Positions 1,934-28,640 of a stretch of DNA of 32,000 bases are shown here, one piece after another. Numbering within the stretch: the stretch's first letter is position 1; the number at the start of each line of letters is the position of its first letter. The translations under genes and the position numbers were made by a program. Below the pieces are notes generated by a model. That model was not told where the DNA came from and made no database searches. It was given only the letters and a program-made list of their open reading frames with translations. The DNA is from Argonema antarcticum A004/B2 (GTDB lineage: Bacteria > Cyanobacteriota > Cyanobacteriia > Cyanobacteriales > Aerosakkonemataceae), in NCBI RefSeq assembly GCF_023333585.1, contig NZ_JAIQZN010000080.1, positions 685 through 32,684 of the forward strand, read 5' to 3'.

Positions 1934-1934
1934 A

Positions 1935-5605: not shown

Positions 5606-6591
5606 GTAGATGGTATTCTATTACGCCAGCGGGAACGGTAGCGATCGGGAATCTGACTCCGGTCGGTCAAAATAGCGGACAAGTGGGCTGTCGTTGGCCA
5701 CCGAACGGTCATCATCTGGCAGCTTGTTTGAAATTACCATCAAATTGTCAAATTTGGGGGCCGTTTTGGTATAAGGGCGAAGGGAATATTTACGTTACAT
5801 TACCTCTGCCTGTTTATCGGTTGGAATCTAAAACAGAGGAACTACCCCAAGAAATTTTTCGCTTGCAATGGCGAGACGGACAATGGCAGAAACAATCGGA
5901 ACATCAAGAACAAGAAATTGAAATTATTGGCGGTAGATATTTAATTCGTGGCAATACTTTAAAGACATTTTGGCAGGCAGGAAAGTTGAAAAATCCGCAA
6001 CTGCAAAAATTTCCTTGGCAAACGCTTACTTTAAGTCACAATAGCCGGGAAGATTACCAAGTTAAAGATGAGGGAGGCTTTTTTGCGGAAATGACTACTT
6101 TAATGTCGCCTGGGTGGTCGATTTTGGTCAAGGTGATGGGAGATTGCAAGTTAGACGAGTGGGGTTTTTTGGGCGCAGGAGGTACGCCAGTTGCGATCGC
6201 GCCCGTAGAAATAAAGGAGGATTGGTTAACGGCAGATTGTCCCAACCCTACTGGTGCGGTTTTACTCACCGGGGCGTTGTGGCAACAGGGGTCATCCGGC
6301 ACACTCAGCAGCAAAGTATCTTGTCCCGTTCCACCATTGCCGATTAAAGCTTATGCTGCCGATACAGGCGTTCCCTGGCAATCTTGGAAAAAGGTCAAAC
6401 ACCGTGATGAAAAAGACAACCCCAATGCTGAAAAACGGGTAGAAGTTTTTACACCGGGAGAATGGATGACTCCCGCAGGCGCGGTGTATCTGTGGGAGGG
6501 AACTGCACCTTTGTTAAAATCCGAACCTTTGCCGGATGCTTACCATCGTCATGTTTTAGGTTACGGACATTTATGGTTATTTCAGGAGTGA
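5602..6591 (+). CDS. cmr3: Cmr3-like (Cas5-family) subunit
   Basis: The ATG at 5602 overlaps the cas10 stop (ATGA). The track's 5572 start is a GTG inside cas10. Size (~330 aa) and position fit Cmr3, and there are glycine-rich segments (FLGAGGTPVAIAP). No decisive motif was recognised. Confidence 0.55.
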   Translation: MSRWYSITPAGTVAIGNLTPVGQNSGQVGCRWPPNGHHLAACLKLPSNCQIWGPFWYKGEGNIYVTLPLPVYRLESKTEELPQEIFRLQWRDGQWQKQSEHQEQEIEIIGGRYLIRGNTLKTFWQAGKLKNPQLQKFPWQTLTLSHNSREDYQVKDEGGFFAEMTTLMSPGWSILVKVMGDCKLDEWGFLGAGGTPVAIAPVEIKEDWLTADCPNPTGAVLLTGALWQQGSSGTLSSKVSCPVPPLPIKAYAADTGVPWQSWKKVKHRDEKDNPNAEKRVEVFTPGEWMTPAGAVYLWEGTAPLLKSEPLPDAYHRHVLGYGHLWLFQE

Positions 6592-6596
6592 ATTAA

Positions 6597-7370
6597 ATGG
6601 CTATTGAATGGTTAATTTGTCGAGAACCTGTACATATTGGGGGTGCTGATAGTAGCAGTCGCGGTAATAATAATCCCATATTTCGATTGCCCGATCGCAG
6701 TCCGGCGATTCCTGGTAGTTCGTTGCGAGGGGCATTGCGAGAACACGCTAAAAGTGATGCTAACTATCAACCATTAGTAAAAAATTGGTTTGGTGGTGAG
6801 AATAATGATATTTCTCCGGGCAATATTTCTTTAGGTTGGGGTTGGCCTGTGTGGTGGCCTGTTCATGTGTTGGGATATGGTAATTGGTGGGTGAGTTGTC
6901 CCAGTTGGTTAAATCGATTTTGCCAATTATCTCAACGATCACCTTTGAACCTTGCTACAGATAAAGTTCATATTACGGAACCACAACTTCGTAATAAAAC
7001 GGTTTATTTGCGGTGGTTAAAGTTGACAAATGTACAGTATTATGCAAACGAATTGCCAGCGCCAGCGGAAGTACCAAAAGATAGGCGAATAGTGGTACCG
7101 GATACTAGCATTAATTTAATTGTGGATATGGGTTTGGTACGACAACCGCGAGTTAGTTTGAAAGATGAAGCGGATGAAAAAGGAAATTTAGTCAACAATT
7201 TATTTGCCGTTGAAGGTTTTCCACCAGGTTCGGTTTTTCTGCTCACTTGGACGACGCGGGAAAAAGTGGAAGAGTTAAACAAGTGGAATGATTTTTTAAT
7301 GGGAGAACATTATCTTGGGGGCTTGTGGAGTGTGGGTTATGGACGGGTGTTTATTTCTCATATTGTATAG
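6597..7370 (+). CDS. cmr4: Cmr4-like Cas7 backbone RAMP
   Basis: 257 aa. The RAMP signature is RGNNNPIFRLPDRSPAIPGSSLRGALREH. A Trp-rich segment (GWGWPVWWPVHVLGYGNWWVSCPSWLNRF) sits in the usual Cmr4 position, and the C terminus is glycine-rich (LGGLWSVGYGRV). Confidence 0.8.
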   Translation: MAIEWLICREPVHIGGADSSSRGNNNPIFRLPDRSPAIPGSSLRGALREHAKSDANYQPLVKNWFGGENNDISPGNISLGWGWPVWWPVHVLGYGNWWVSCPSWLNRFCQLSQRSPLNLATDKVHITEPQLRNKTVYLRWLKLTNVQYYANELPAPAEVPKDRRIVVPDTSINLIVDMGLVRQPRVSLKDEADEKGNLVNNLFAVEGFPPGSVFLLTWTTREKVEELNKWNDFLMGEHYLGGLWSVGYGRVFISHIV

Positions 7371-7946: not shown

Positions 7947-8598
7947 GTTTTCACACCTTTTCCTTCTAATGAAGGTCGCTACTTTTTTATAATACCTTAT
8001 CCAACAATGGTTTTGTAAAGCTTCAACACCTTTACCTTCTAATGAAGGTCGCTACCTGATTCTATTACGGTGATTGCCAGCGCTACCACTTGTTTCAACA
8101 CCTTTACCTTCTAATGAAGGTCGCTACGTCTGGGATTTGTTACCGCCCAGCAAAGCGGCAATCAAATAGCGATGGTTTCAACACCTTTACCTTCTAATGA
8201 AGGTCGCTACCGCCCTAAAAGCATTAGGGCTAGGGGAGCGCCTGATAGTGGTTTCAACACCTTTACCTTCTAATGAAGGTCGCTACGTGACCGGCGCGAC
8301 CGGTTTTGTCGGCTCGGCGGTGGCGCGGGTGGTTTCAACACCTTTACCTTCTAATGAAGGTCGCTACTCGATCGCTAGCCCCTTGCATTTAGAGCTAGAG
8401 CAGTTGCCTCAGCTTTGTTTCAACACCTTTACCTTCTAATGAAGGTCGCTACCACCACTACAGCAGCAGCAGCAAAAACGGGACAAGACAGTTTCAACAC
8501 CTTTACCTTCTAATGAAGGTCGCTACGCCATCATGAAGGTGGGGATTTCTGCAAGTTCGCGCGTTTCAACACCTTTACCTTCTAATGAAGGTCGCTAC
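7947..8598 (-). CRISPR. CRISPR array 1: 9 repeats of 36 bp, 8 spacers of 36-49 bp
   Basis: Repeats start at 7947, 8020, 8092, 8175, 8251, 8332, 8417, 8491 and 8563. The + strand consensus is GTTTCAACACCTTTACCTTCTAATGAAGGTCGCTAC. The transcribed (minus) form is GTAGCGACCTTCATTAGAAGGTAAAGGTGTTGAAAC, which ends in the type III-like tag GTTGAAAC. The two lowest-coordinate repeats are degenerate (3 mismatches and 1 mismatch), marking the trailer. The conserved leader lies on the high-coordinate side. Confidence 0.97.
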
Positions 8599-8805
8599 CT
8601 ACCCCTATTCAACCCCTTATCCTGCCTGATTTCCAGCGGCAGTTTGCGAGGGATACCAATTTTCTTACCACAAACCTCCTTACTTGCACATCTTTAAACG
8701 TCTAAAACCCTTGCCCAGTAAGGCAGCGAGGCTCACAACGAAGTTGCGTTGTTTCAGCGATTTTTCATCACCCTCGCAATTTTAGGGAATTGGGGATAGC
8801 TGGGA
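8599..8805 (-). promoter_or_regulatory. Leader of array 1
   Basis: It flanks the non-degenerate end of the array. Its blocks are collinear with the array 2 leader: AAACCCTTGCCCAG (8705-8718), GTTTCAGCGAT (8751-8761), and the inverted pair TTGCGAGGG (8644-8652) / CCCTCGCAA (8771-8779). Confidence 0.7.
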
Positions 8806-8841
8806 GCGATCGCACTTTACTACACTACTAAGTGCGATCGC
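8806..8841. other. HIP1-based hairpin just downstream of the cmr6-like stop
   Basis: GCGATCGCAC (8806-8815) and GTGCGATCGC (8832-8841) form a perfect 10-bp inverted repeat with a 16-nt loop. The same design recurs at 27888-27921 and 29747-29784. Confidence 0.6.
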
Positions 8842-8849
8842 CTGATTCT

Positions 8850-10364
8850 TCAACATTGCCATACAACCTGGAAACCTTTACTTGTCAGCGTCGCTTCCAC
8901 AGCTTGATCAAATACAGTAATCAAACAATAATTCTCATATTGTCGCACCGCATAACCAGATGGTCGAGTCTCAGAATTTCCACACCATTGGGGGCGATTT
9001 GTGGCTGTGGTACTGCAAACTTTATGCACGATATCTCGCCATTTATCTCCTTTTCCCTGCCAAATACTAATCAGAGAACCAGAAACTATTGCTGGCTTTG
9101 ACATCGCACGCCAACCATAATTTTCACCTAATTTTGCGATTAGTTCCCGCAAACGCTTAATTAACTCATTCAAAGGTTCTTCCAAATTAACTGGCGTAAC
9201 AGTAAATTCACTACCCCGAAAACCATAAAAACGTTCTAAAACGTGGGGTGGTCTGCGCCAACCTGGGCCAAGTCCACCAAGGCGACTAGCTAAAGCAAGC
9301 AATCCACCAATTAAAGGTTTAAATTCTTCATTGCAATCAACACTAATTATCCAAGTTGCGTGTGCTTGACGAGCCGGAATATTAGTATAATCATTGGAAG
9401 TTTGACCGAGCATTCTGGGAATAGATTGCAAATAGCTAGTTAAAGTTAATTTAGCCGGACAACCCAAACCTCCAAATATTTTATCAGTCAGTTTTAAGGC
9501 AGTTTCCTGCGAAAACAAAGATAATGCCAATCTGGTAAAGTAACCGCGTAAATTAGCCCGCAATACTTGAGGCGTCCAGCGGTATTGTCCGGTTTGATTT
9601 TCCCCTGGTTTGTGACTTTGGACGCAAGGTTTCATTCCGGTGAGTTGAATCTCCCAATTTCCTGAAGGAATAAAGGGCGCTAATCGACCAAAACCCGATG
9701 CTTTTCCCCGTCCGATTCCTTGGAATTGCAGCATTTCTTTTAAGCGTGTTTCCAGCCAAGTTTTTTGTTCTTTGCTAGAAGTATCTTTCAGTAAAACTTG
9801 CAAGCAGAATTTATCGAAATTCGGACTGGGAGGTTTAGGAGATACTTGCCATTGAATGCCTAAATTCTTACTTTTTTCGTCAAATAACTGCCATTTTTGT
9901 TGAGCGTTTAATGGATAAGGTTTGAGGTTTTTTAGTAGAATGGTTTCAAAGCGAATTTTGCGGGGTAGCCAGTGAGTGCGATCGCTTGCCAGCAAACTTT
10001 GCCAAAAAGCTTGTTCTTCACTCGGTAAATCATTCCATTTTCCCTGAATCCAACTTAGCAAAGCGCCCCTAATGCTAGAACCGGGAATGCAGGGAACACC
10101 GCCAATTTGGGCGGGTAAAATACCTCCTTCTGGAAAACTACCCCCACCAACTTGAATCGGACTAATAATTTGCAATTTGTCCAAACGTACCGTGTAAGCA
10201 TCAGCATTTTTGGGCGAATAACTTCCTTTTGTATCCCAAGCATCAATAATTATGGCAGAATCTTCTTTACCTTCAATAATATCCTCAGTTTTCGGTGTCC
10301 AGCCTCTTTCTTTTGTCTCTTCAACTGTGTACCATTGGGGCATTTCTTCAGGTAATAGCGCCAT
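8850..10364 (-). CDS. Two-RAMP-domain protein: Cmr6-like N-terminal half, Cmr1-like C-terminal half
   Basis: 504 aa. The first RAMP has GGVPCIPGSSIRGALLSW and the glycine loop QGIGRGKASGFGRL. The second RAMP has LRANLRGYFTRLAL, IFGGLGCPAKLTL and LGGLGPGWRRP. No separate cmr1 or cmr6 occurs elsewhere in the window. Confidence 0.6.
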   Translation of the reverse strand: MALLPEEMPQWYTVEETKERGWTPKTEDIIEGKEDSAIIIDAWDTKGSYSPKNADAYTVRLDKLQIISPIQVGGGSFPEGGILPAQIGGVPCIPGSSIRGALLSWIQGKWNDLPSEEQAFWQSLLASDRTHWLPRKIRFETILLKNLKPYPLNAQQKWQLFDEKSKNLGIQWQVSPKPPSPNFDKFCLQVLLKDTSSKEQKTWLETRLKEMLQFQGIGRGKASGFGRLAPFIPSGNWEIQLTGMKPCVQSHKPGENQTGQYRWTPQVLRANLRGYFTRLALSLFSQETALKLTDKIFGGLGCPAKLTLTSYLQSIPRMLGQTSNDYTNIPARQAHATWIISVDCNEEFKPLIGGLLALASRLGGLGPGWRRPPHVLERFYGFRGSEFTVTPVNLEEPLNELIKRLRELIAKLGENYGWRAMSKPAIVSGSLISIWQGKGDKWRDIVHKVCSTTATNRPQWCGNSETRPSGYAVRQYENYCLITVFDQAVEATLTSKGFQVVWQC

Positions 10365-10560: not shown

Positions 10561-10594
10561 GTTTCAACACCTTTTCCCTATCTAAAGGGTCTTC
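10561..10594 (-). repeat. Solitary CRISPR-repeat-like element (third repeat variant)
   Basis: The + strand reads GTTTCAACACCTTTTCCCTATCTAAAGGGTCTTC. The first 16 nt are identical to the array 2 repeat, and it has its own small stem (CCCT..AGGG) at the position of the array hairpins. No second repeat lies nearby. Confidence 0.75.
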
Positions 10595-10671
10595 TTTACT
10601 TTAATAGGAGAAAGCCTGGAAAATAAGGTCATAATGGCATTGACATTTGTTCGCTTCAGTGATATATACAC

Positions 10672-10968
10672 TTAATCAAGCGGACAAAGTAACCTCCAAA
10701 GCGGTGTGGGAATGTCCTCAAAATGTTCTAGCAGAAAGTCCATAATTGCCAGATGGCGCAAATCGTTAGGATGGGGATTTCTGCCTAAATCTCCTTGTTT
10801 AAACCACCCGCGCACGGTAGACTCGGAACGAGAACAAATTAAAGCTATTTGTTCGTAAGTTACTGCCCATTTATTGTAAAATTGTCTGGGTGTCATCCCT
10901 AATTGGCAATGGCTGTACAATTGAATCAAAGTTAATTCTCGTTCCTGTAAAATTCGAGGTTTATTCAT
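10672..10968 (-). CDS. Small helix-turn-helix protein
   Basis: 98 aa with an HTH-like segment VTYEQIALICSRSESTVRGWF. It sits inside the cas block, downstream of a toxin-like ORF. Confidence 0.5.
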   Translation of the reverse strand: MNKPRILQERELTLIQLYSHCQLGMTPRQFYNKWAVTYEQIALICSRSESTVRGWFKQGDLGRNPHPNDLRHLAIMDFLLEHFEDIPTPLWRLLCPLD

Positions 10969-11121: not shown

Positions 11122-11391
11122 CTAATGACTATCAATAGCCATCACCCAAATGGTTTTACCCTCTTTGTATTTCCAGTAAAAACGCAAAGCCATCGAAGCA
11201 GAAGAACCCCAAATTTCGCCTTTTTTCTGTTTATATCGATGAGTCCTCAAACTTCTGTAATTTGGCCCTTCTGCTGCTAAAAGTTGGAAAGCTTTATGGT
11301 ATTGTTTTTGCGTTTTTACTGAAAATACCGCCAATTGCTTTTTTACTTTGGGAGTGACAATCACCTCAAATTGGATGGCTTGATAGTCCAT
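11122..11391 (-). CDS. RelE/HigB-like toxin-fold protein (putative)
   Basis: 89 aa. The C-terminal pattern SLRTHRYKQKKGEIWGSSASMALRFYWKYKEGKTIWVMAIDSH resembles the RelE/ParE/HigB consensus: L-x-x-H-x-L-K-G, W-S, R-(I/F)-x-(F/Y), and a terminal H. Confidence 0.4.
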   Translation of the reverse strand: MDYQAIQFEVIVTPKVKKQLAVFSVKTQKQYHKAFQLLAAEGPNYRSLRTHRYKQKKGEIWGSSASMALRFYWKYKEGKTIWVMAIDSH

Positions 11392-11460: not shown

Positions 11461-11739
11461 CTAAACGATGAAAGCCGCATCATCTACTGCAAAGTCTGGC
11501 TTTATTCCTAAGACCGCTACTTTGCAACGACAGGGGTCGGATAGGGGATAAAATCTGAGTTGGTCTTCTTTGGAATTGAGTATTTTGAACAACCGTTTTT
11601 GAATGTTCTCGTACTGCTTTTCATCCAGTACCGCCTCGAATACCGACTTCTGCACTCGCAATCCGTAAGTTTCTAATAATTTAGAAACTTTATAGCGGCG
11701 ACTATCATCTACGATGTCATAGCAAATGAGGTAAAACAT
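11461..11739 (-). CDS. cas2: Cas2
   Basis: The sequence MFYLICYDIVDDSRRYKVSKLLETYGLRVQKSVFE.. is typical of the Cas2 ferredoxin fold. The ATG at 11739-11737 overlaps the cas1 stop (TAATG). The longer track ORF to 11880 runs inside cas1. Confidence 0.9.
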   Translation of the reverse strand: MFYLICYDIVDDSRRYKVSKLLETYGLRVQKSVFEAVLDEKQYENIQKRLFKILNSKEDQLRFYPLSDPCRCKVAVLGIKPDFAVDDAAFIV

Positions 11740-12803
11740 TACACTTTTACCAGTATTCGCTGTTCTGTTGGCTGATTGCTGACAGGAGAGATAGCAGTAT
11801 CGGTATCCCATTTCAGCAGCATGGGGCGGTAGAATTCTACATCGCCTAACAAGTAAGCAATGTATTCTTGTACTTGCCATGCTAAACAGCGACGGTAGCT
11901 GAGTTTTCCTGCATATAAATGAGTCACTTCAGTTTGCAGCTTTTCTTCCCAATGCTTGATAAACTTTTTCAACGTAGCAGGATATAGAGATATTGCGTCC
12001 TGTTGGGAAGGTCGGGTAAAATCGTCAGGTGTCAGAATTTGCGAAATTGCCAAATTTGCCACTAATTCGTCTACCAAGAAAGGACGAAATTCGACGGCGA
12101 AATCTTCAATCAAAGATAGTTCATCTTGGCAATAAAAATGCAGGTTGCCGAAGTTGGGATTGAGTCCGGCTGATTGTACAAATCCGTAAATGGTATGATT
12201 TAGCAGGGCATTACCCAGGCGTAACACGCTGTTAATGGAGTGGGAGTGAGGGCGACAAGTACACTGGAAGTTGAAAGCTTTTGCGAGTAACTCGGTGATG
12301 GCTTGATAGTACAAAGAAGCGGCTGTAGTTGAGTATTCCCGCAGTGCGTGGATAGAATCTGCCATCGGCAAATCATCGATTAAAAGGTCTAGCATTTCCA
12401 TCGCTATTTCTGCTTTGGGAGTGGAATGATTTGCACTCAAGCGCAACAGAACGATGCCACAGTTATGCAGGTAAGCGCGGACGATGCTTTCAGCTATGGT
12501 TTTGGGAAAGTTGGGGTTTTGGGCGCGTTTGATTTGCTGGGGAAAGTATTTGGCAGGATGTAGCGATTCTAGTTGTAAGCGTCCTAAATAGTTTCCTTGG
12601 TTGTCGAGGAATAGGACGGGAATTGCCAGAGATTGAGCTAAAGATGCGGCGTTCGGTTGTAAGTGGCAATTACCGAATAGAGTAATTTTGCTTACTTGGG
12701 AAGAATGCACTTGCAGGCACAGTTTGTTTTGGTGGAATACTTGGAAGTAATGATGTTTTACTTTTAAGCAAGTGCCTGGTTCGGTCATGTAGATTGCTGT
12801 CAT
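11739..12803 (-). CDS. cas1: Cas1 without RT, a paralogue of the Cas1 domain of the RT-Cas1 fusion
   Basis: 354 aa. Along its length it parallels RT-Cas1 residues 332-665, for example MTAIYMTEPGTCLKV vs MTTLYVTDQGAYLSI, FGNLH in both, and FIKHWEEKLQTEVTH vs FLKHWEEKLQSELTH. Acidic and His active-site positions are retained (REYS, GNLH, IEDFAVEFR). Confidence 0.9.
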   Translation of the reverse strand: MTAIYMTEPGTCLKVKHHYFQVFHQNKLCLQVHSSQVSKITLFGNCHLQPNAASLAQSLAIPVLFLDNQGNYLGRLQLESLHPAKYFPQQIKRAQNPNFPKTIAESIVRAYLHNCGIVLLRLSANHSTPKAEIAMEMLDLLIDDLPMADSIHALREYSTTAASLYYQAITELLAKAFNFQCTCRPHSHSINSVLRLGNALLNHTIYGFVQSAGLNPNFGNLHFYCQDELSLIEDFAVEFRPFLVDELVANLAISQILTPDDFTRPSQQDAISLYPATLKKFIKHWEEKLQTEVTHLYAGKLSYRRCLAWQVQEYIAYLLGDVEFYRPMLLKWDTDTAISPVSNQPTEQRILVKV

Positions 12804-12842
12804 AATTTGCTTTTAAACTCTACATTCCTATCTTCTCAACCG

Positions 12843-12900
12843 GGTATTTGAGTTGGTATTTGAGTACGCATATTAGTATATGAGTTGGTATATGAGTTGG
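12843..12900 (-). promoter_or_regulatory. 2+2 set of 12-bp direct repeats upstream of cas1
   Basis: Units are GGTATTTGAGTT (12843), GGTATTTGAGTA (12855), a 9-bp gap, GTATATGAGTT (12876) and GGTATATGAGTT (12887). A candidate -10 (TAGAGT on the minus strand, 12817-12822) lies about 20 bp downstream. The block is paralogous to 16386-16444. Confidence 0.6.
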
Positions 12901-12978
12901 CGATTTGGTCAAAAATGGTTTTTTAGTTTTTATTTTGTAGGTAGAGAAAGAGAATCGCTTTTACTCCGCAACATTAAA

Positions 12979-13206
12979 TATAGCTAGTGACTAGGGAAGA
13001 GGAAAAAGGGTTAAGGAGTAAGAGATGGAAAGACCAAAGGTAAGAGTTGGAGTTGTCCTAATCGCCAAGGTGGTTGCTATAGCTAGGGACTAGGGGCTTT
13101 CTTGCTAGGGGCGAGCGTTGAGGGAGAGGGAAGAGGTTACTCCGTAAGGGATTATGGACTTCATGTAACAGTTGGAGTTGGCTTAATCGCCCTGGCGGTT
13201 GCTATA
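12979..13206. repeat. Degenerate tandem duplication (units of ~99 and ~125 bp)
   Basis: TATAGCTAG(T/G)GACTAGGG occurs at 12979 and 13078. AGTTGGAGTTG.C.TAATCGCC..GG.GGTTGCTATA occurs at 13045-13082 and 13169-13206, matching at 33 of 38 positions. Confidence 0.7.
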
Positions 13207-13213
13207 TATTACA

Positions 13214-13244
13214 GTCCCCAGGATAAGCAGATTATCCTGGGGAC
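13214..13244 (-). terminator. Strong hairpin at the trailer end of array 2
   Basis: GTCCCCAGGATAA (13214-13226) pairs with TTATCCTGGGGAC (13232-13244), a perfect 13-bp stem with a 5-nt loop. It lies 6 nt beyond the last repeat in the transcription direction. There is no clear U-tract. Confidence 0.5.
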
Positions 13245-13250
13245 AATTGG

Positions 13251-14102
13251 GTTTCAACACCTTTTCTCTTCAGTAAGAGTCAATCGTGAGTACAAATGGT
13301 ACATGGACGATAGCCCTTGGGTAGAGGTTTCAACACCTTTTCTCTTCAGTAAGAGTCAATCCAGCATTTGCTGGTAACGACCCGTATGAAAAACTGATGG
13401 GTTTCAACACCTTTTCTCTTCAGTAAGAGTCAATCTCTTTTTAACAGACCAAAAAGTTGGTGGAGCTTTATAAAGTTTCAACACCTTTTCTCTTCAGTAA
13501 GAGTCAATCATGGAGACACTGTAATTTGCGCAGGTTCCGCGGACGAACAGTTTCAACACCTTTTCTCTTCAGTAAGAGTCAATCTTTGCAATGGTAATTT
13601 CTATGATTGCCAGTGGAACAGTTTCAACACCTTTTCTCTTCAGTAAGAGTCAATCAAGAGCTACCAGGGTGGGCGGTAACCGTCTGCCCTGAAAGTTTCA
13701 ACACCTTTTCTCTTCAGTAAGAGTCAATCCGGGAGCAAATCCAGGAGCGGCGGCAACAGCAAAACAATCGCGTTTCAACACCTTTTCTCTTCAGTAAGAG
13801 TCAATCCAGCAATAGGGTTGGTCGGCACTGGTGTCGCTTGGGGAATGTTTCAACACCTTTTCTCTTCAGTAAGAGTCAATCAATCTTGATAAAATTGAGA
13901 AAAAAGCAGAGGAAGCAAGTTTCAACACCTTTTCTCTTCAGTAAGAGTCAATCTTGTCTGGTTTTGATAGTCTTAGCTGGGCCCGCCGGCCTAGTTTCAA
14001 CACCTTTTCTCTTCAGTAAGAGTCAATCAGTGGCAAACCGACTCGACGCACGAGTCAGAAGCAGCTTGTTTCAACACCTTTTCTCTTCAGTAAGAGTCAA
14101 TC
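13251..14102 (-). CRISPR. CRISPR array 2: 12 repeats of 35 bp, 11 spacers of 36-42 bp
   Basis: Repeats start at 13251, 13327, 13401, 13475, 13550, 13621, 13695, 13772, 13847, 13919, 13994 and 14068, and all are identical. The + strand reads GTTTCAACACCTTTTCTCTTCAGTAAGAGTCAATC. The transcribed form is GATTGACTCTTACTGAAGAGAAAAGGTGTTGAAAC. Confidence 0.97.
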
Positions 14103-14340
14103 CCTTAGCTTCTAGAAGCCAAGCGTTGAGCTAATTCTACACCGCCAGATCTGAGGGGGTCAAGTTGGACGATCGAAAACGAGACAATTCTTCTCAATAA
14201 CCCAGAATAACACCCACCTTAAACCCTTACCCAGAGAGCTATCCGAGGGGGTCAACGAAAGAATGAGGGTTTCAGCGATCGACTGACCCTCTCAGATGCT
14301 TATTATTAGGACGAATATTGATAAGCTTTGCTAATCAAGT
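14103..14340 (-). promoter_or_regulatory. Leader of array 2
   Basis: It lies between the RT-cas1 stop and the first repeat. Conserved blocks are AAACCCTTACCCAG (14221-14234), GTTTCAGCGAT (14269-14279), and the inverted pair ATCTGAGGGGGTC (14149-14161) / GACCCTCTCAGAT (14285-14297). Confidence 0.7.
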
Positions 14341-16338
14341 TCACAGAGTCCAAATCATCGGACGGTAAGTATCAACTTCCCCCATCAAACAAGCAACATA
14401 TTCCCGCACCTGCAACTCCAAACAGCGGCGAAAACTGACTTTGTATCCAGTATGCGGGTGCGTCAATTCCGACTGCAATTTTTCTTCCCAATGCTTCAAA
14501 AACTTTTTTAGCGCATGAGGTTGCAGAAACACGCCACCACGTTCATCTGGCAACGTAAAATCCTCCGATGTGAAAATTTTAGAATTAACCAAATAAGACA
14601 CCAAAGAATCTACCAACTGCGCCCGAAACTCTTCCATCAAATCCGAAACCAATGCCGGATGATTATCGCGAGGAACGTGCAAATTACCGAAATGAGTATG
14701 CAGTCCAATCAATTCGATAAAAGAGCAAACATTTTGACTCAGCAGCGTATATCCCAAACTCATCAAACTGTTAATTGGGTCGGTAGGAGGGCGCTTTGTT
14801 CGCTTTTCAAATGCAAAAGTTCCAGTAAACAGAGAACCCAATGCTTGAAAATACAAAGTGGCTGCTTTTCCTTCATATCCCCGTAACGCATCCATCGATT
14901 CAGCATCAGGTAATTTCTCCATCAATTCAGCAATTGATTCCAGGGATTGCAAGGCAATTTTGCTGGGACGACGACGATTTAATTTGAGCAATAAAGCGCG
15001 GGAATTATGTAATTTAGCCCAAACAATGGCTTCTGCTTGCCGTCGCGTGAATTCAGGATTTAGAGAACATTCAACCTGCCGTGCCAAGTATTCCACCTTC
15101 GCGTGTCCGTCCGTTTGCAAACGCCCGAAATAGCGGCCTTTCTGGGAAAGATACATGACCGGAATTCGCCGCCGCAAAGCACAAGATACCGCTCCGTGCG
15201 ATAAATTGCAACAACCGAATAAGACAATATGGCTGACCCGATTGGCTGGCACTTTAATCCGCAACTCCCGCTGATAGAAAACTTCAAATTGCTGGTTATG
15301 AATGCTCAAGTAAGCACCTTGGTCAGTTACGTACAAAGTAGTCATGGGTTCCTTCCAAAAATGTTCGGTATTGGCAATGGGAAAGTTAATAGGTTTGAGT
15401 AAGCTACAAGCTTTGGGAGGTTGGGAAAAAACGGGAGTTTTTCGAGCTTTTTGTTGATAAGGCATCCCGGAATCCCGGAGTGCGAGTCCTCCTAGTTGAG
15501 GAGGTGGCGGCGGAATTAATTCTCCTTTAGAAAAGCGATAACCTAGAAAAGTAAACTCTTCATCGGGAGTGAAAATATGGGTTTTTCCCGGTTGAAGCTT
15601 CAGATAGATATCGCCCAACCATTGGTTAATTTGTGACAAAGCGCGATTAGCTTGTATCCAATCGCCAGATGCAATGACAAAATCATCGCCATAGCGCACC
15701 AAATTAAATCCCTTACTCAAACAAAATCGATCGAATTCGGTGAGGTACAAGTTAGCTAAAGCACCGGAAAGAATGGCACCTTGCAATACTCCCTGACCGA
15801 AATTTCGGCGAACAGCACCAATTACGATGTCGGATTTTAGTTGCTGTTCGATTAATTGCAGTAAAATAGGTTCTAGCTGCAATTGCTCTAAGTCGGTTAG
15901 CAGTAACGCCCAGCAGAGGTTGTCGAAAAATTTCTCAATATCTGCCTTGACAATCCAAGTGGGTTGGAACTGATAATAGGAATACAGATGTTTGACTGCC
16001 ATCTGAATTCCCCGACCGGGACGGTAAGCGTAGCTGCAATCGAGAAATCGTTCTTCAAGGGGGAAGTAAAGTTCGTTCAGCAGCAGGCGAGAGACAATTC
16101 TATCCCGCACTGTCTGAATGCCAACCAACCGCTTACCACCACTCGATTTGGATAGATAAAATCCTTTGGCGGGACTAACCGTGTAGGTTTCGTTTTGCAG
16201 TCGATGGTGTAAAATTTGTAACTGCTGACGAGCAATTGGGGCAAATAAATCGGTGGTAATACCATCAATACCAGCACTTTTACTTCCCTTGCGAACTTGT
16301 TCCCAAGCAATCTGGAGAAGTTCTGGGGTTAATTCCAT
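14341..16338 (-). CDS. Reverse transcriptase-Cas1 fusion
   Basis: 665 aa. The N-terminal half has group II intron-like RT motifs: YAYRPGRG, KADIEKFFDNL, GVLQGAILSGALANLYL, the YxDD box RYGDDFVI (Tyr codon at 15693-15691), LKLQPGKTHI and FTFLGYRF. A proline linker PPPPPQ follows. The Cas1 domain starts at residue 332 (ATG at 15345). There is no N-terminal Cas6-like domain. Confidence 0.93.
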   Translation of the reverse strand: MELTPELLQIAWEQVRKGSKSAGIDGITTDLFAPIARQQLQILHHRLQNETYTVSPAKGFYLSKSSGGKRLVGIQTVRDRIVSRLLLNELYFPLEERFLDCSYAYRPGRGIQMAVKHLYSYYQFQPTWIVKADIEKFFDNLCWALLLTDLEQLQLEPILLQLIEQQLKSDIVIGAVRRNFGQGVLQGAILSGALANLYLTEFDRFCLSKGFNLVRYGDDFVIASGDWIQANRALSQINQWLGDIYLKLQPGKTHIFTPDEEFTFLGYRFSKGELIPPPPPQLGGLALRDSGMPYQQKARKTPVFSQPPKACSLLKPINFPIANTEHFWKEPMTTLYVTDQGAYLSIHNQQFEVFYQRELRIKVPANRVSHIVLFGCCNLSHGAVSCALRRRIPVMYLSQKGRYFGRLQTDGHAKVEYLARQVECSLNPEFTRRQAEAIVWAKLHNSRALLLKLNRRRPSKIALQSLESIAELMEKLPDAESMDALRGYEGKAATLYFQALGSLFTGTFAFEKRTKRPPTDPINSLMSLGYTLLSQNVCSFIELIGLHTHFGNLHVPRDNHPALVSDLMEEFRAQLVDSLVSYLVNSKIFTSEDFTLPDERGGVFLQPHALKKFLKHWEEKLQSELTHPHTGYKVSFRRCLELQVREYVACLMGEVDTYRPMIWTL

Positions 16339-16385: not shown

Positions 16386-16444
16386 GGTATATGAGTTCGT
16401 GTATGAGTATTTGACTTATGTATATGAGTTGGTGTATGACTTGG
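16386..16444. promoter_or_regulatory. 2+2 set of 12-bp direct repeats in the RT-cas1 / HTH-NACHT divergent intergenic region
   Basis: Units are GGTATATGAGTT (16386), CGTGTATGAGTA (16398), a 10-bp gap, GTATATGAGTT (16420) and GGTGTATGACTT (16431). A candidate -10 TAGAGT (minus strand, 16360-16365) and an AGGAGG Shine-Dalgarno sequence precede the ATG at 16338. Confidence 0.6.
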
Positions 16445-16463
16445 ATAGAGTTTTGAAGAATTG

Positions 16464-19400
16464 ATGGCAAAGCGATCGCTGCAAGCATCAGAGTCAGGTA
16501 TCCAGCAAGTTAAACTTGCCTTGGAACGTCGTCAGTTGACTCAAAAAGCTTTTGGCGAAGAATTAGGCATTGCTTGGTCAACCATCAGCAAGTTTTTTAA
16601 CGGGAAACGGATTTATAGGACAATTTTTCTGGAAATTTGCCACAAACTGAGCTTAGATTGGCAAGAAATAGCAGGGGTAGAAATCGCAGGTGGTGATGAA
16701 ACCCCATCTCAGCTGCTAGGAGATGTCCGCCGCTACGCCGCTATTGCTAGAGATGCGCTTAATCCTCGCATTTTAGAAAGAATCGAGCGTAAAATTGTCG
16801 GTGAAAAATATATAACTGCGATTCAACGCGGTGTCAGCAACGTGCAACAAAGAGTTGTACCGATTATTGCACCTGCGGGATACGGGAAAAGTACAATTTT
16901 AGGAAATATATACGACGAACTGATTAAAGCAGAAGTAAGCTGGGTAGCACTTGTTTTGTGCAACTCTTTGAGTATCGAATCGACACCAACGGCGGAAAAG
17001 TTAGCGTTAGCTTTGGGTGAGACAGCTAGCGGTAAACAAATATCGATCGCGCAATTAGTTACCGATTTAACGGTTGAATGCGGTAGGGGTGTGCTGTTAA
17101 TCGATACTTTGGATTTAGTTTTAAATCGCCATTTGGCAACAGCTTTTACCACCGTACTCCGACAACTAATGGATGCAGGTGCAACGGTGGTTTTTACTTG
17201 TCGCGATCACGAATATAATGATTTTTTAGAACCCCCCCGCGAAAAGATGGCAGCGATTAGCGATACGATCGATCGCTATAACGTTCCTACATTCGATCGG
17301 GCCGAAATCAGAGAAGCTGCTGCGACATTTTTCCACAAGTCTCAAACTACTACGCCAGAAATAGGGTATACTTTTGCCGATCGCATTTTAAGTTTATCTG
17401 CCGATAACCGTCCGCTACAAGAAATCACTTGCAATCCCTTATTGTTAGCTTTACTTTGCGACTTGTTCGCCAAAGATGGTAATGTTCCAGCCGATTTAAC
17501 CGTTAGCAAACTCTATCAAAGATATTGGCACGAAAAAATTGCTTACAGTCGCATTGATGATAGTCATACTTCCCTGTTAGCGATCGAAAAAGAAAATTTT
17601 TGTCTCGCCTTCGCCAAATCCCTATTTCAAATGTCGGCTGAAAAACTTTGCGAATCAGCTTACCGAGACGAACTGGGAATTAATTTTACCGAAATAGTTG
17701 CTACGGCTTACGATAATTTATTAAGTGAAGGGGTAATCGAACGTTTACTTTCTACGAAAATCCACTTTTTTCACCAAACTTTATTAGAATATACCATAGC
17801 TTACTGGCTAACTAGACATAGCGCCAAAGAATATCGTTATCAACTATTGCAAATTAGTCAATCAGATGATAGTACTCGCACTTATTGGTTTCCAATTATC
17901 CGCCAGCTTTTGACGATCGTAGATGAATCGGACTTTGAAGAAATTGTTAATAAATTAGATATCAATCGAATAGCAGCCTTTCGCGCGATCGCTTTTGCTG
18001 CTACTTCTCGTAGTGAAGAACAACCACTTTTAAAGTTATTACCAACTGCGCTAGCGCGAGGTAGCGCTTATCAAAGAATATTGTATCGCGCTTTAGCTTC
18101 AGCTTCCGTACCTTTGCAAGAAACAGCATGGAATTGTTTATTGACTATTCTACGAGAAGGCGATCGGGCCACTGCTTCTAGCGCCGCCCAAACTATTGGT
18201 GCTATGCTAAATCCCTGGGGGACATCTCTAAGCGATCGTCTCGAACAAGCTATTAATGCTATATCCCAGCGTACTGCAAGTAATGATAACATTAATGAGC
18301 GATCGCAGCTTTATGGTTGGTTAGTTGATGCAGTTAACCCAATAATTACTGAAAATATTGATAACGAAGCATTAACTATCTTAGGCAAACATTATTTCAA
18401 GTTTTCGGAAGGAACTCGGACGACAGTTATTTGTTTTCACTTAATACCAGGAGTGACTCTGACCGCGCAAGTAGAATTATTCAATATGATCAAAACTGAG
18501 CCTTTACCCAAACGCACCGAGTTTAAATTCAAACAAGAGTTAGCTAAATTTTTAGCCGTTACCTTACCAACCCAAATCGAAAAATCTCCCTTACCGCCAA
18601 CAGATGCTTGGCTGGATAGCCTGCACCATCCCATTCAGTCTGGTTTCGATTTAATTCAAGCTAAAGCGATCGGTCAGTATGCTACTACTAATTCTAACTT
18701 ATTAACTGCTATTCTGCAAGACTTTATTACTGGAGATAAAAAAAATACAAATAATAACTTATTTGCTTTAATAGAAGCCATAAGTTATGGTGCTAGCCAT
18801 CAAATAGCATCGGCATTAATTAAAATTGACCATCTCCCTTCAGAGCGGGTTAAATCGGTAATTACACTTTTGAAAGAGATGAATAATACCCTCGATTTAA
18901 GTCAGCGTGAATCTTTGGCGAACTGGATAAAACCGATCGCGATTGAGCATCCCGAACAATGGTTGCCTACTCTGGCTGACTTAGCCTCAGATTCTTTAAA
19001 GGTACAACAGTTAGTTATAGAACTTTTCTCCACTTTACCTGAAGAAAAGCAAAGTTTAATCCTTAATAAAAACTTGCTAATATTGATTCCAGAGTTATGG
19101 CAAACCCTATCACATAAAGACGCTAATAGCCAAGTTAATTTAGTATTGGTTAAAGTTTATCGAGAAACTGCTCAAACCAATGATTCGGATATTAGCAAAT
19201 TAATTGAATTAGCAATCAAATCTGGCAAAAAGGCAGCAATCTCAGCGGCAGAAGCTATTTTTAGCTTATCTAAAGAGCGAAAGTTACCCAATTTTAAAGA
19301 CTTATGGGATTTAAGTAATTCTACCTTTCCAGGGGTTAGACTAAATTATTTATCAAGTATCAAAAGCCAGATAATCCAATGGAATGTAGCACTCCAAGAA

Positions 19401-19934
19401 TCCGAACTTACAGAAATCTGTTCCCAGTTTGGTAATGAAACAGAACCACAAGTAATCCAACAGTTATGTGAATTAGTCGCTATTTGGGTGGATCTAAATA
19501 AATACGTTCCTTTAAAAGTAGCAGAAATTATTGGTAATATTCCCACTCGCTTATCTGCACTCGGAATATTAGAGGGAGGAGTTGCAGGTGCAACGATCGA
19601 TACTCTAAACGTGATGGCACAACTTCCAAATACCTCTTTAACTCCTCTAGTTGTAAATTGGACGCGACAGCTTTTACATCAAATAGATATGAAAAGAGTT
19701 CAAGAGTCAAAAGTGGTCGATTTATTAGGTTCGGTGGCAAGAATTGATTCTAGCTTTTTGCCTGACGCAGTTAATGAATATTGTCCATCATTACCAACTA
19801 GAAACCAACGCATTGTAGCTTTAGCTGTTAGAAGAGTCGAAGGTGTTGACTCGCCTTTACTGGATTGTTTATTGACGAGGGAGTGGACTGACGCCGAAGT
19901 CAAGAATTTGATTTTAGAATGGAGAGGGGTATGA
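16464..19934 (+). CDS. HTH (XRE-like) - NACHT/STAND NTPase - helical-repeat protein
   Basis: About 1156 aa counted from the ATG at 16464; the track starts one codon earlier at a TTG. The N-terminal HTH is LTQKAFGEELGIAWSTISKFFNGKR. Walker A is IIAPAGYGKST, Walker B-like is GVLLIDTLDLV, and the sensor-like motif is VVFTCRDHEY. The C-terminal ~600 aa appear helical with HEAT/ARM-like periodicity. Confidence 0.75.
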   Translation: MAKRSLQASESGIQQVKLALERRQLTQKAFGEELGIAWSTISKFFNGKRIYRTIFLEICHKLSLDWQEIAGVEIAGGDETPSQLLGDVRRYAAIARDALNPRILERIERKIVGEKYITAIQRGVSNVQQRVVPIIAPAGYGKSTILGNIYDELIKAEVSWVALVLCNSLSIESTPTAEKLALALGETASGKQISIAQLVTDLTVECGRGVLLIDTLDLVLNRHLATAFTTVLRQLMDAGATVVFTCRDHEYNDFLEPPREKMAAISDTIDRYNVPTFDRAEIREAAATFFHKSQTTTPEIGYTFADRILSLSADNRPLQEITCNPLLLALLCDLFAKDGNVPADLTVSKLYQRYWHEKIAYSRIDDSHTSLLAIEKENFCLAFAKSLFQMSAEKLCESAYRDELGINFTEIVATAYDNLLSEGVIERLLSTKIHFFHQTLLEYTIAYWLTRHSAKEYRYQLLQISQSDDSTRTYWFPIIRQLLTIVDESDFEEIVNKLDINRIAAFRAIAFAATSRSEEQPLLKLLPTALARGSAYQRILYRALASASVPLQETAWNCLLTILREGDRATASSAAQTIGAMLNPWGTSLSDRLEQAINAISQRTASNDNINERSQLYGWLVDAVNPIITENIDNEALTILGKHYFKFSEGTRTTVICFHLIPGVTLTAQVELFNMIKTEPLPKRTEFKFKQELAKFLAVTLPTQIEKSPLPPTDAWLDSLHHPIQSGFDLIQAKAIGQYATTNSNLLTAILQDFITGDKKNTNNNLFALIEAISYGASHQIASALIKIDHLPSERVKSVITLLKEMNNTLDLSQRESLANWIKPIAIEHPEQWLPTLADLASDSLKVQQLVIELFSTLPEEKQSLILNKNLLILIPELWQTLSHKDANSQVNLVLVKVYRETAQTNDSDISKLIELAIKSGKKAAISAAEAIFSLSKERKLPNFKDLWDLSNSTFPGVRLNYLSSIKSQIIQWNVALQESELTEICSQFGNETEPQVIQQLCELVAIWVDLNKYVPLKVAEIIGNIPTRLSALGILEGGVAGATIDTLNVMAQLPNTSLTPLVVNWTRQLLHQIDMKRVQESKVVDLLGSVARIDSSFLPDAVNEYCPSLPTRNQRIVALAVRRVEGVDSPLLDCLLTREWTDAEVKNLILEWRGV

Positions 19935-20955: not shown

Positions 20956-23900
20956 ATGTCCACTTTTGAGATCGGGTTACTAAATAACTCCTACAACACA
21001 GCAGATGCCCTTGGAGTTGCCTATCCATCTGACAAGTATAGCTTTACACTTGGAGATACTCAAAATTTAAAGTTATCCTTAACGGGTATCAGTACGATTG
21101 TAGACTGGCAACTCAAAAACAGCGATGGAGCAACTCTGCACAGTGGCTCAGTTAGTCCCACCAACTTAGAAGGAATTAATATTGGTAATTTGTCAGCAGG
21201 GGAATACTCTCTTGAGCTTTCCCAAACAAATAGCGATACCAACTATGCTCTCAACATTGACCCCCTGACTAAGTTGAATGTAGAATCGGGATTTTTTACT
21301 GTCGGACAAACGGGACAAATAGGGGTTGATTACTTAACTGACGGCGGTTGGTATCAGAGCGAGTTGGCCATTTTCAGTTTGACGGGAATGGAGGCATTTT
21401 CTCCAGGCTCGCAAGCTTTTATTAAAGAAGCTGCGAGAAGGTCACTGACCAATTCAACAGAAGGTTACGTTGTTATTGCAGACGCTACAGAAGGAGCCAA
21501 GTTCAGTCCCACTTTTCCTTGGGGAGATAATTATAACAATGGCGAATACAAAAATATAAAGACATTTGCCATGAAACCTGGGGATAATTTTGGCTTTATG
21601 CTTGTTCCCAATGGCACCGCACAACAGGTATTTAATAATCCCAATATAGGTGGAGCAAAGCGTCCTTTATTCTCTTTGGTAACAGCTAACCCGAATGAGG
21701 CGTTTCACGTCGGTCAAATTGCGGATGTAATCGGCGATGGCAAAACTTTTGTTATGGAGGATAAGAGAGTTGATGAAGGTTCGGATAAGGATTATAACGA
21801 TATAGTTTTTCGAGTAACTGATGCTACAGGAAAAGCAGTTAAGTTAGATGATGTAATTGCTCCCGATAAAGATTGGCGCAAAACTAAGGTAGTGGATGAT
21901 TTAATTGCTTACATCAATACGCCTCCTCAGTTTTTGCAATTCACCACCAAGACACTCTATAAAGCAGGTGAAGCGATCGATCTTACTGATGCTAAAGTTT
22001 ATGACGAAAATCGAGACTTGACCAAAGTAAATTTCTGGTTAAAGAGAAAGGAAGAGGTAGACTGGGTTGATATCAAAGATGCGACTAAAGATGCTTTCAA
22101 AGTGAATGAAGACTGGACAAGCTTCAATTACTCTTTCAGAGATTTAGTAGGGGGTAGTTACGAACTGAAGGCGATCGCATTCGACGAGCGGCAACAAAGC
22201 AACGAGGTAATTAAGGAGTTTCGGGTCAATGCCGCTCCGAAAGAACTGCAATTTATTATTCCACAAGATACTTACGATATCGGAGAAACGGTAAGTATCA
22301 CTGGAGGTAAAGTGTATGATGCTGACGGGGTGGATGACTTAGTTAAAGTAGGTTTCTTTTTAAAGAAAGGCAATAATAGTTGGCAAGATATTACTGCCGA
22401 TGTCACCAGTTTTACGGCTGGTAGTGGAGATAATAATTTAGCAAACTTCACCTACTCCTTATCACCAAATTTATTAAAAGAGGCTGGCACTTACGAGATC
22501 AAAGGCGTAGCTTACGATCTAGCAGGTGATTCCAGTAATGAGGTAATTAAGAACTTTACCATCCGCAGCAAAACTGTCGAACCATCACCCAACTCGCCGC
22601 CCGAACAATTGCAGTTTAACTTATTACCATCTTACACGATCGGTCAACCAGTCAGCATTACGGGTGGAAAAGTATACGACAAAAATGGTGAGAGCGACCT
22701 GAAATCAGTAGATTTAGAGCTATACAAAGATAACGTTTTTTTGAACAAATATACTGTAGCGATCGCGGATGATAATCAAAGTGGAGACGGCTGGGGAACT
22801 TTCAACTATTTGTGGAGCGATTTATCAGAAGGGAATTATCGCTTAGAGGCGAAAGCTTTCGATGGAGTGGAATACTCTGCTAAAGTAAGCCAAAGCTTTT
22901 CCGTCATTAGCGAACCTGTCGCCGAGCCAGTACCCAATTCGCCACCTGAATTCTTGCAGTTTAACTTATTGCCATCCTACAAAATTGGTCAGCCAATCAC
23001 CATTATGGATGGAAAAGTATACGACAAAAATGGTGAGAGTGACCTAAAATCAGTAGATTTAGAGCTATACAAAGATAACGTTTTTTTGAACAAATATACT
23101 GTAGCGATCGCGGATGATAATCAAAGTGGAGACGGCTGGGGAACTTTCAACTATTTGTGGAGCGATTTACCAGAAGGGAATTATCGCTTAGAGGCGAAAG
23201 CTTTCGATGGAGTGGAATACTCTGCTAAAGTAAGCCAAAGCTTTTCCGTCATTAGCGAACCTGTCGCCGAGCCAGTACCCAATTCGCCACCTGAATTCTT
23301 GCAATTGAATTTATTGCCATCCTATACAACAGGTCAAGCAATCACTTTCACAAACGCGAAAGTATACGATAAAAATGGAGAGGGCGACCTAAAAGAGGTA
23401 ACTTTAGAGTTATATAAAGATAACAATTTTTTGGGCAATTATACAGTCGGTATTGTGGATGATAGTCAAAGTGGAGATGGCTGGGGAACTTTTAACATTT
23501 CTTTTAATCAGCTAGCAGAGGGAAATTATCAGATTAAAGCATCCGCTTACGATAAAGCGAATACCGAAAGTAATAAAGCAGTTCAAAACTTTACCGTAGA
23601 GGCAGACAAACCGCCACAGCCTAACAGAGCGCCTGGATCTTTAGATTTTAGCATTCTGCCTCTCTACGTTAATGGTGAGACACTAAGCTTTAGTGATGGG
23701 AAAGTTTATGATCCAGATGGAGCTAGAGACGTAGATAGAGTATATTTTTGGTTGGGTACAATTGGTGGCGAACAAGTTGACGCGATCGAAGTTTCTGAAT
23801 TTACTCCTGATAACAAGGGTAACGCTAGATTTGATTTCAATTACGACTTGAGTAAATTAGCACCAGGACGCTACCAATTGTGGGCGATCGCAACTGACAA

Positions 23901-28058: not shown

Positions 28059-28640
28059 ATGACAGTAACGCTAGACAAAACAAAAGACCAACGCCTAGTT
28101 CATTTTGGAATGAGTTGGCAACAGTTCAAGTTACTTCAGGAAAGCTTTGCCGACTCACGAGGAATCCGACTCGCTTATTACAAAGGAGAAATTGAAATTG
28201 TGACACTTTCCCCTGACCACGAATCAATCAGCCGCATGATTACAGGGTTGCTAATTGTGTATTTTTTGAACAAAAACATTGAATTCAACCCATTAGGCAG
28301 CTTTACCCAAGAAAAGGAAGAGGAAGTTTCAGCGCAAGCAGACGAATCATTTGCTATTGGTAGGTCAACCGCAACTAAACCTGACTTGGTTGTAGAAGTA
28401 ATCTTTACCAGTGGTAGCGATCGCAAATTGAAACGCTATAAAGTTTTAGGTGTTCCTGAAGTTTGGTTTTGGGAAGATGGTTTATTCAGGCTGTATCATT
28501 TGCGGGAATCAGGATACGAGCGGATAGAGCGTTCTGAAGTTTTGCCAGATTTGGATATCAACCTGTTAACTCGTTGTGTGATGATGGCTTCTAAACTTGA
28601 AGCTCTTAAAGTGTTTCAACAGGCAATTGCTCAAGCTTAA
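28059..28640 (+). CDS. Uma2 (DUF820) family restriction-endonuclease-like protein
   Basis: 193 aa with the family-typical layout: ..YYKGEIEIVTLSPDHE.., PDLVVEVIFTSGS, YKVLGVPEVWFWE. Confidence 0.8.
   Translation: MTVTLDKTKDQRLVHFGMSWQQFKLLQESFADSRGIRLAYYKGEIEIVTLSPDHESISRMITGLLIVYFLNKNIEFNPLGSFTQEKEEEVSAQADESFAIGRSTATKPDLVVEVIFTSGSDRKLKRYKVLGVPEVWFWEDGLFRLYHLRESGYERIERSEVLPDLDINLLTRCVMMASKLEALKVFQQAIAQA

Follow-up and report, generated by a model that had tools for sequence, protein, structure and literature searches.

The closest characterized reverse transcriptase (RT)-Cas1 systems include RT-Cas1-Cas2 of Marinomonas mediterranea and Vibrio vulnificus and Cas6-RT-Cas1-Cas2 of Thiomicrospira (PDB 7KFT/7KFU; PMC8102632). 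All of these require Cas2 and form hexamers having catalytic and non-catalytic protomers; the four RT-Cas1 chains are identical, and cas2 is found beside the fusion gene. The same architecture is seen in solved Cas1-Cas2 integrases generally, which are hexamers in which each Cas1 dimer comprises one catalytic protomer (Cas1a) and one structural protomer (Cas1b; PMC8102632, PMC7969031), and the C-terminal segment of Cas2 contacts Cas1b (PMC8102632). The acquisition of RNA-derived spacers by RT-Cas1 has been shown in species other than the one studied here. In cyanobacteria, RT-Cas1 loci with an extra, RT-less cas1 have already been published (Toro 2017, PMC5541045; Silas 2017, PMC5513706), as has an isolated cas1-cas2-csx18 cassette from Anabaena 7120; Toro et al. 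2017 (PMC5541045) described the two cas1 genes as having no common ancestor. In this study, a 32,000-nucleotide (nt) stretch of DNA from the cyanobacterium Argonema antarcticum (hereafter, "the window") was analyzed. It contains an RT-cas1 fusion and, on the other side of a CRISPR array, a stand-alone cas1 (hereafter, cas1') that is coupled to cas2. Cas1' has lost two of its four conserved active-site residues, and this loss is a trait of its family. The locus probably encodes a single composite adaptation module in which an inactive Cas1', together with Cas2, supports an active RT-Cas1.

At 100% identity, the stand-alone Cas1 of the window matches an NCBI protein of the same cyanobacterium. 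The order on the minus strand is RT-cas1, a 238-nt stretch, array 2, cas1', and cas2. RT-cas1 (14341-16338, minus strand) codes for 665 residues. Profiles from Pfam and NCBIfam placed RVT_1 (residues 64-269) N-terminal to Cas_Cas1 (335-619); the RT is of the group II intron-like kind, with its YGDD motif present and a TIGR04416 match of 218 bits, and the alignment revealed a complete Cas1 active site (E489, H554, D566, E569). As in the Marinomonas, Vibrio, and Thiomicrospira systems, the RT is thus borne by an intact Cas1 in a type III context; unlike the Thiomicrospira fusion, this protein has no fused Cas6 domain, and in place of four identical chains with an adjoining cas2 there is a separate, inactive Cas1 that accompanies cas2. 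The cas1' gene (11739-12803, minus strand; 354 residues) matches Pfam PF01867 over positions 1-283 of 283 with a score of 187 bits (vs. 299 for RT-Cas1) and TIGR00287 with 193 bits. Its product aligns with the Cas1 domain of RT-Cas1 over 331 residues with just 2 gaps (43% identity, 64% similarity). The ATG of cas2 (11461-11739, minus strand; 92 residues; PF09827/TIGR01573, 84.5 bits for Pfam) shares its A with the stop codon of cas1' (TAATG), and a search of the window yielded no second Cas2 homolog. These data bear out three statements in a preliminary description of this DNA, namely that RT-cas1 has no neighboring cas2 and an RT-less cas1 overlaps it, that Cas2 is present once, and that the two Cas1 sequences resemble one another along their whole length.

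The same description held the catalytic positions to be retained in the stand-alone Cas1, and this did not survive alignment. The segment RGYE489GKAA of the fusion pairs with REYS158TTAA of Cas1', and D566-L-M-E569-E-F-R pairs with D234-F-A-V237-E-F-R. The four active-site columns of Cas1' are therefore S158, H222, D234, and V237; His222 and Asp234 remain, and two of the four conserved residues are gone. We take the four columns to be those of E141, H208, D218, and D221 in the E. coli protein, which puts Ser158 and Val237 at the E141 and D221 positions; the D221-equivalent acid is reportedly essential in E. coli (Babu 2011; Nunez 2014). The placement of S158 and V237 was the same in alignments anchored on the solved Cas1 structures 8D3L and 7CR6, and the four columns were Glu-His-Asp-Glu (E-H-D-E) in 109/109 aligned Cas1 sequences from outside the Cas1' family. 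Hence, Cas1' has the profile match and the two-domain fold of a Cas1, with a beta domain at the N-terminus and a helical domain at the C-terminus, but not its conserved set of metal-binding/catalytic residues. Judged from its sequence, cas1' is very likely a conserved, catalytically impaired paralog. Its annotation as "CRISPR-associated endonuclease Cas1" needs correction, as the protein is probably unable to cut.

The canonical Cas1-Cas2 modules of types I-C, I-D, and I-E (PDB 8D3L, 7CR6) have the same fold, length, and cas1-cas2 coupling as Cas1', but their Cas1 keeps E-H-D-E where Cas1' has S-H-D-V. Cas1 homologs with degenerate active sites have been described in 2014 work, and, to the extent that PMC9755687 recounts that work, they resemble Cas1' in this respect; according to the same account, however, they are not linked to CRISPR or Cas2 and are thought to be probably vestigial, whereas cas1' is coupled to cas2, adjacent to an array, and under purifying selection. 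The locus itself belongs with the clade 3 loci of Toro 2017 and the III-B-RT locus of Arthrospira platensis (Silas 2017), which likewise combine an RT-Cas1 fusion with an RT-less cas1 in a type III, cyanobacterial setting. Those papers note just the extra cas1; here, catalytic residues are found to be missing from the extra copy. In a literature search that was not exhaustive, no paper was found that describes RT-Cas1 loci with an inactive paralog of Cas1, nor, within the same incomplete coverage, any report of a conserved, cas2-coupled pseudo-integrase family or of the loss of catalytic residues.

A one-genome-per-species scan supplied 75 cyanobacterial loci, which were surveyed using open reading frames (ORFs) and phmmer. 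Of these, 31 have RT-cas1 together with a stand-alone cas1 of the Cas1' family. Among these dual-gene loci, cas2 adjoins the stand-alone cas1 in 31/31 and RT-cas1 in 0/31; in the 6 loci lacking a stand-alone cas1, it comes straight after RT-cas1 or overlaps with it. In 30/31 stand-alone copies, A, V, L, T, S, G, or I stands in place of the last (D221-equivalent) acid, and the remaining copy was without the first (E141-equivalent) Glu. The column of this first Glu varies widely among the family members (S, D, A, I, V, T, N, M, G, Q, K, L, and others). By comparison, 53 of 54 RT-fused cyanobacterial Cas1 domains have E-H-D-E. HMMER, run exhaustively against 1.84 billion cluster representatives (clustered at 50% identity), retrieved 22 more representatives of the Cas1' family, and all 22 were degenerate. 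On these sequences, the two-residue loss is a trait of the Cas1' family and not an accident of the genome sampled in the window. RT-cas1, array, cas1', and cas2 follow one another on one strand in ca. 25 loci, a pattern that the window fits; the genera include Nostoc, Tolypothrix, Richelia, Rivularia, Microcoleus, Aerosakkonema, Floridaenema, and others (Nostocales, Oscillatoriales). The dual arrangement, presented at first as the special point of this DNA, is accordingly a layout conserved across cyanobacteria and already in print (PMC5541045, PMC5513706).

The cas1' gene is under purifying selection. In the comparison of the window with Floridaenema, the ratio of nonsynonymous to synonymous substitution rates (dN/dS) came to 0.10 (cas1'), 0.05 (Cas1 domain of RT-cas1), and 0.06 (cas2); the medians over 135 pairs were 0.16 for cas1' vs. 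0.09 for the RT-linked Cas1 domain. The Cas1' family is the faster-evolving of the two, with a mean identity of 46% (vs. 66% for the RT-linked domain) and 42 columns that are ≥95% conserved (vs. 93). The columns that have lost constraint cluster in the active-site motifs (G-x-E-G, RPPxDPxN..S, and DLME), and the C-terminal region is conserved in both paralogs. An AlphaFold2 model of Cas1' was confident (predicted local-distance difference score, pLDDT, 83.7; predicted template-modeling score, pTM, 0.85). With Foldseek, the model was matched over its full length to solved Cas1 structures, the top hits all being Cas1 (TM-score 0.83 to 8d3p_B). The TM-scores were 0.83 for one Cas1 conformer and 0.63 for the other; as AlphaFold returns a single state, this difference is not taken as a sign of catalytic or non-catalytic placement.

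Outside its own family, Cas1' is most similar to cyanobacterial RT-Cas1 (43-48% identity), and other RT-Cas1 sequences are at ca. 30%. In neighbor-joining trees, the degenerate clade had a bootstrap value of 94%, its grouping with the cyanobacterial RT-Cas1 domains 96%, the union of all cas2-linked stand-alone copies 100%, and the separation of all cyanobacterial sequences from the outgroups 88%. The Cas1 phylogeny proposed as a check thus places the stand-alone clade as sister to the cyanobacterial RT-Cas1 domain (94-100% bootstrap), as expected from the suggested duplication with RT loss or gain. The ranking of similarities and the trees support a single duplication inside the cyanobacterial RT-Cas1 lineage, which would most simply have been followed by loss of the RT from one copy. 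By the same two lines of evidence, an independent origin of the two genes (Toro 2017) was rejected; they group as sister paralogs, in contrast to the absence of a common ancestor reported there. The losses in the active site were probably repeated, because a Microcoleus subgroup of the stand-alone clade keeps E-H-D-E and a few members of the family have lost just the first Glu. Repeated losses would be expected if catalysis became dispensable early.

An operator-like element precedes both cas1 genes on the minus strand, at 16387-16444 for RT-cas1 and at 12844-12900 for cas1'. Each features two tandem copies of the 12-13-mer CCAACTCATATAC or a similar sequence, a gap of ca. 8 nt, and two more copies, after which a similar stretch extends to the ATG. 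In distant genera, too, tandem motifs of the ACTCATATAC type lie upstream of RT-cas1 as well as of cas1', which upholds the earlier proposal of a duplicated promoter region. Strict matches to the tandem motif numbered 66 in 1.2 Mb of loci, and 45 of these were located within 260 nt upstream of RT-cas1 or cas1'. The element at RT-cas1 falls in a 125-bp divergent region common to RT-cas1 and a gene on the plus strand (16461-19934) for a 1157-residue protein with helix-turn-helix (HTH) and STAND-NTPase regions. Homologs of the latter were found in 48/76 loci (e.g. L001:3344-6814), mostly divergent and upstream of RT-cas1, either as HTH-STAND NTPases of ca. 1150-1200 residues or as HTH-only proteins of ca. 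250 residues. This protein is a candidate regulator that may act on the ACTCATATAC repeats; together, the divergent HTH-STAND gene and the motif found ahead of both cas1 genes suggest that adaptation has a regulator of its own.

Array 2 (13251-14102) consists of 12 perfect 35-nt repeats and 11 spacers, and the end of its repeat on the minus strand is GTTGAAAC; the array is probably transcribed on that strand. Array 1 (7947-8598, minus strand) has 9 repeats of 36 nt. The repeats of the two arrays differ, yet they have the same 14-nt end (GTTTCAACACCTTT), which would give both arrays an identical 5' tag on their CRISPR RNAs. On the minus strand, ca. 240-250 nt separate the start of each array from the stop codon of the gene that precedes it. 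The high-coordinate flanks of array 1 (8599-8849) and array 2 (14103-14340) have conserved blocks in common, including CTGGG(T/C)AAGGGTTT(A/T)AG, and the other flanks have nothing in common; in both arrays, the flank with the blocks measures exactly 238 nt. A promoter-like sequence, TTGACC-18-TAGAAT (14163-14134, minus strand), is positioned ca. 30 nt ahead of the first repeat of array 2, and the degenerate repeats of array 1 are at its low-coordinate end. Since the common blocks and the promoter-like site are on the high-coordinate side and the degenerate repeats of array 1 are at the opposite end, the 238 nt at 14103-14340 (minus strand) are the probable leader of array 2, and RT-cas1 would lie at the leader side, as the preliminary description had it. 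On the transcribed strand, a perfect hairpin with a 13-bp stem (GTCCCCAGGATAA...TTATCCTGGGGAC, 13214-13244) comes directly after the final repeat of array 2 and has no T-run behind it. A lone repeat-like copy (GTTTCAACACCTTTTCCCTATCTAAAGGGTCTTC) was noted at 10561-10596, between a 98-residue HTH gene and a 504-residue RAMP gene (8850-10364, minus strand), upstream of the latter on the minus strand. It could be either the remnant of an array or a processing or regulatory site.

Taken together, the locus is probably best described as one composite module in which the inactive Cas1' and Cas2 support the active RT-Cas1. According to the proposed mechanism, the integrase gene of an ancestral cyanobacterial RT-cas1-cas2 operon would have been duplicated. 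The downstream copy, cas1', would have shed the RT and then its acidic active-site residues, the Cas1 fold and purifying selection having been kept, and cas2 would have remained attached to it. RT-Cas1, which alone has both an intact integrase site and an RT, would supply catalysis as Cas1a. Cas1', co-produced with Cas2, would occupy the non-catalytic Cas1b position and touch the Cas2 tail. The working integrase, (RT-Cas1:Cas1')2:Cas2(2), would insert spacers derived from RNA or DNA into the intervening array at its leader end, and expression of the two halves would be kept in step by the operator-like motif upstream of each gene. The mixed RT-Cas1/Cas1/Cas2 integrase, originally raised as a question, thereby becomes the leading hypothesis, albeit with an inactive Cas1 subunit. 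We consider this full heteromeric mechanism slightly on the probable side. The broader proposition, that the roles of the Cas1 homodimer have been split between the paralogs across cyanobacteria, such that the obligate complex is (RT-Cas1:Cas1')2:Cas2(2) with RT-Cas1 as the sole catalytic and RT-bearing protomer and Cas1' as a Cas2-binding pseudo-integrase, could as easily be wrong as right.

Several observations weigh against the heteromeric integrase, and some of them lend weight to other explanations. In the structure from Thiomicrospira, it is the non-catalytic protomers that carry the ordered RT lobes, which extend in trans to the catalytic site (PMC8102632); the geometry of a cyanobacterial complex would have to differ, because an RT-less Cas1' cannot do this. 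The trees are based on simple distances and are not maximum-likelihood trees, and the physical RT-Cas1/Cas1' complex is a prediction. Strict co-evolution of the two genes is also called into question: in some pairs of Nostoc loci (L006, L010, L017, L052), cas1' is far closer than RT-cas1 (dS of 0.18 vs. 1.1), which suggests that the two have been exchanged independently among Nostoc. Moreover, some stand-alone cas1'-cas2 loci (e.g. L055, L058, L063) contain no RT-cas1 within the fetched sequence. The occasionally discordant history, these solitary cassettes, the promoter element of cas1' itself, and the retention by Cas1' of His222, Asp234, and the conserved fold would all suit a Cas1'-Cas2 with a role of its own (prespacer capture and hand-over, leader binding, or regulation), RT-Cas1 integrating as a homomer with or without Cas2. 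This is unlikely, however, given that all characterized RT-Cas1 integrases work with Cas2, that the sole cas2 is coupled to cas1', and that the same motif stands upstream of both genes with the array between them. The idea that Cas1' still acts as an integrase through a rewired site, made up of His222, Asp234, and Glu238 and/or Glu156, and that the locus has two functional integrases, is more doubtful. Residual or rewired activity is possible in principle because the family conserves His222, Asp234, and Glu238, with a Glu two residues ahead of the lost one in most members. Furthermore, a Microcoleus subgroup (L039, L042, L071, L073), whose stand-alone cas1-cas2 is divergent from RT-cas1, nests inside the stand-alone clade with 100% bootstrap and keeps the full E-H-D-E; it is a possible still-active intermediate. 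But the column of the lost Glu is so variable that it looks like lost constraint and not like a new ligand, and the D221-equivalent acid is invariant in all of the 109 other Cas1 sequences.

Catalytic competence of Cas1' would also be needed if the locus comprised two independent modules, with RT-Cas1 acquiring RNA-derived and Cas1-Cas2 DNA-derived spacers, or with one array for each. Both divisions of labor had been floated in the preliminary description, and the presence of two cas1 genes with their own promoter regions and of two arrays with different repeats speaks for them. They would leave RT-Cas1 without a Cas2 partner, however, and the arrays have a common 14-nt repeat end and similar leaders; the layout is also conserved where a single array is present. 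With the E141- and D221-equivalents absent from Cas1', and with RT-Cas1 never having its own cas2 when Cas1' is present, we regard two modules as quite improbable. That cas1' is merely a pseudogene decaying after duplication is scarcely credible: the lost catalytic residues, the lower Pfam score (187 vs. 299 bits), and the lower mean identity (46% vs. 66%) would be expected of such a gene, but its reading frame is intact, its predicted fold is confident, dN/dS is 0.10-0.16, and the cas2-coupled gene is conserved across dozens of genera. The pseudogene reading was rejected on dN/dS and conservation.

Should the heteromeric integrase of RT-Cas1, Cas1', and Cas2 prove correct, it would be the first case in nature of a heteromeric Cas1 integrase, and an RT would be needed on the catalytic protomer only. 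In Cas1-Cas2 integrases, the chemistry is performed by just two of the four Cas1 chains. An asymmetry fixed in two genes would offer a natural handle on what the non-catalytic protomer contributes and on which RT copy matters. Reconstituted or engineered cyanobacterial RT-Cas1 recorders should include cas1', and not cas2 alone.

Two conserved small genes follow cas2 on the minus strand. The nearer (11122-11391) encodes 89 residues without a family match, and the other (10672-10968), downstream of it, encodes the 98-residue HTH protein mentioned above. Each was found in 46/76 loci, including loci without cas1'. Searches of Pfam and NCBIfam with the two products returned just a weak HTH match (for the 98-residue protein), and the names in the source records are "hypothetical" or "HTH". 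The two products may be "adaptation-associated" small proteins (Csx18/cluster 216, Shah et al. 2019).

The context is type III-B-like, because a Cas10/Cmr2 protein (3395-5605) and a Cmr4-like RAMP protein (6597-7370) are encoded in the window; these effector genes (3395-7370) are on the plus strand and convergent with the adaptation genes on the minus strand, and a further RAMP gene is found at 8850-10364. RT-cas1 thus lies next to an array and in the setting of type III effectors. Upstream of cas10/cmr2, at 80-3398 (plus strand), there are two large ORFs (617 and 487 residues) that matched no Pfam or NCBIfam family; homologs of the 617-residue protein were seen in just two other fetched loci (L031, L032). 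Farther away, and unrelated to the CRISPR locus, a giant protein of 2276 residues is encoded at 20956-27786 (plus strand), with a subtilase/mycosin-like protease region and SBBP beta-propeller repeats; its gene contains internal 345-nt tandem repeats (22578-23567). A Uma2-family gene is located at 28059-28640. An IS630-family transposase at 28703-29649 (plus strand) is present as two overlapping ORFs of 130 and 220 residues, a split that probably stems from a frameshift or from programmed frameshifting.

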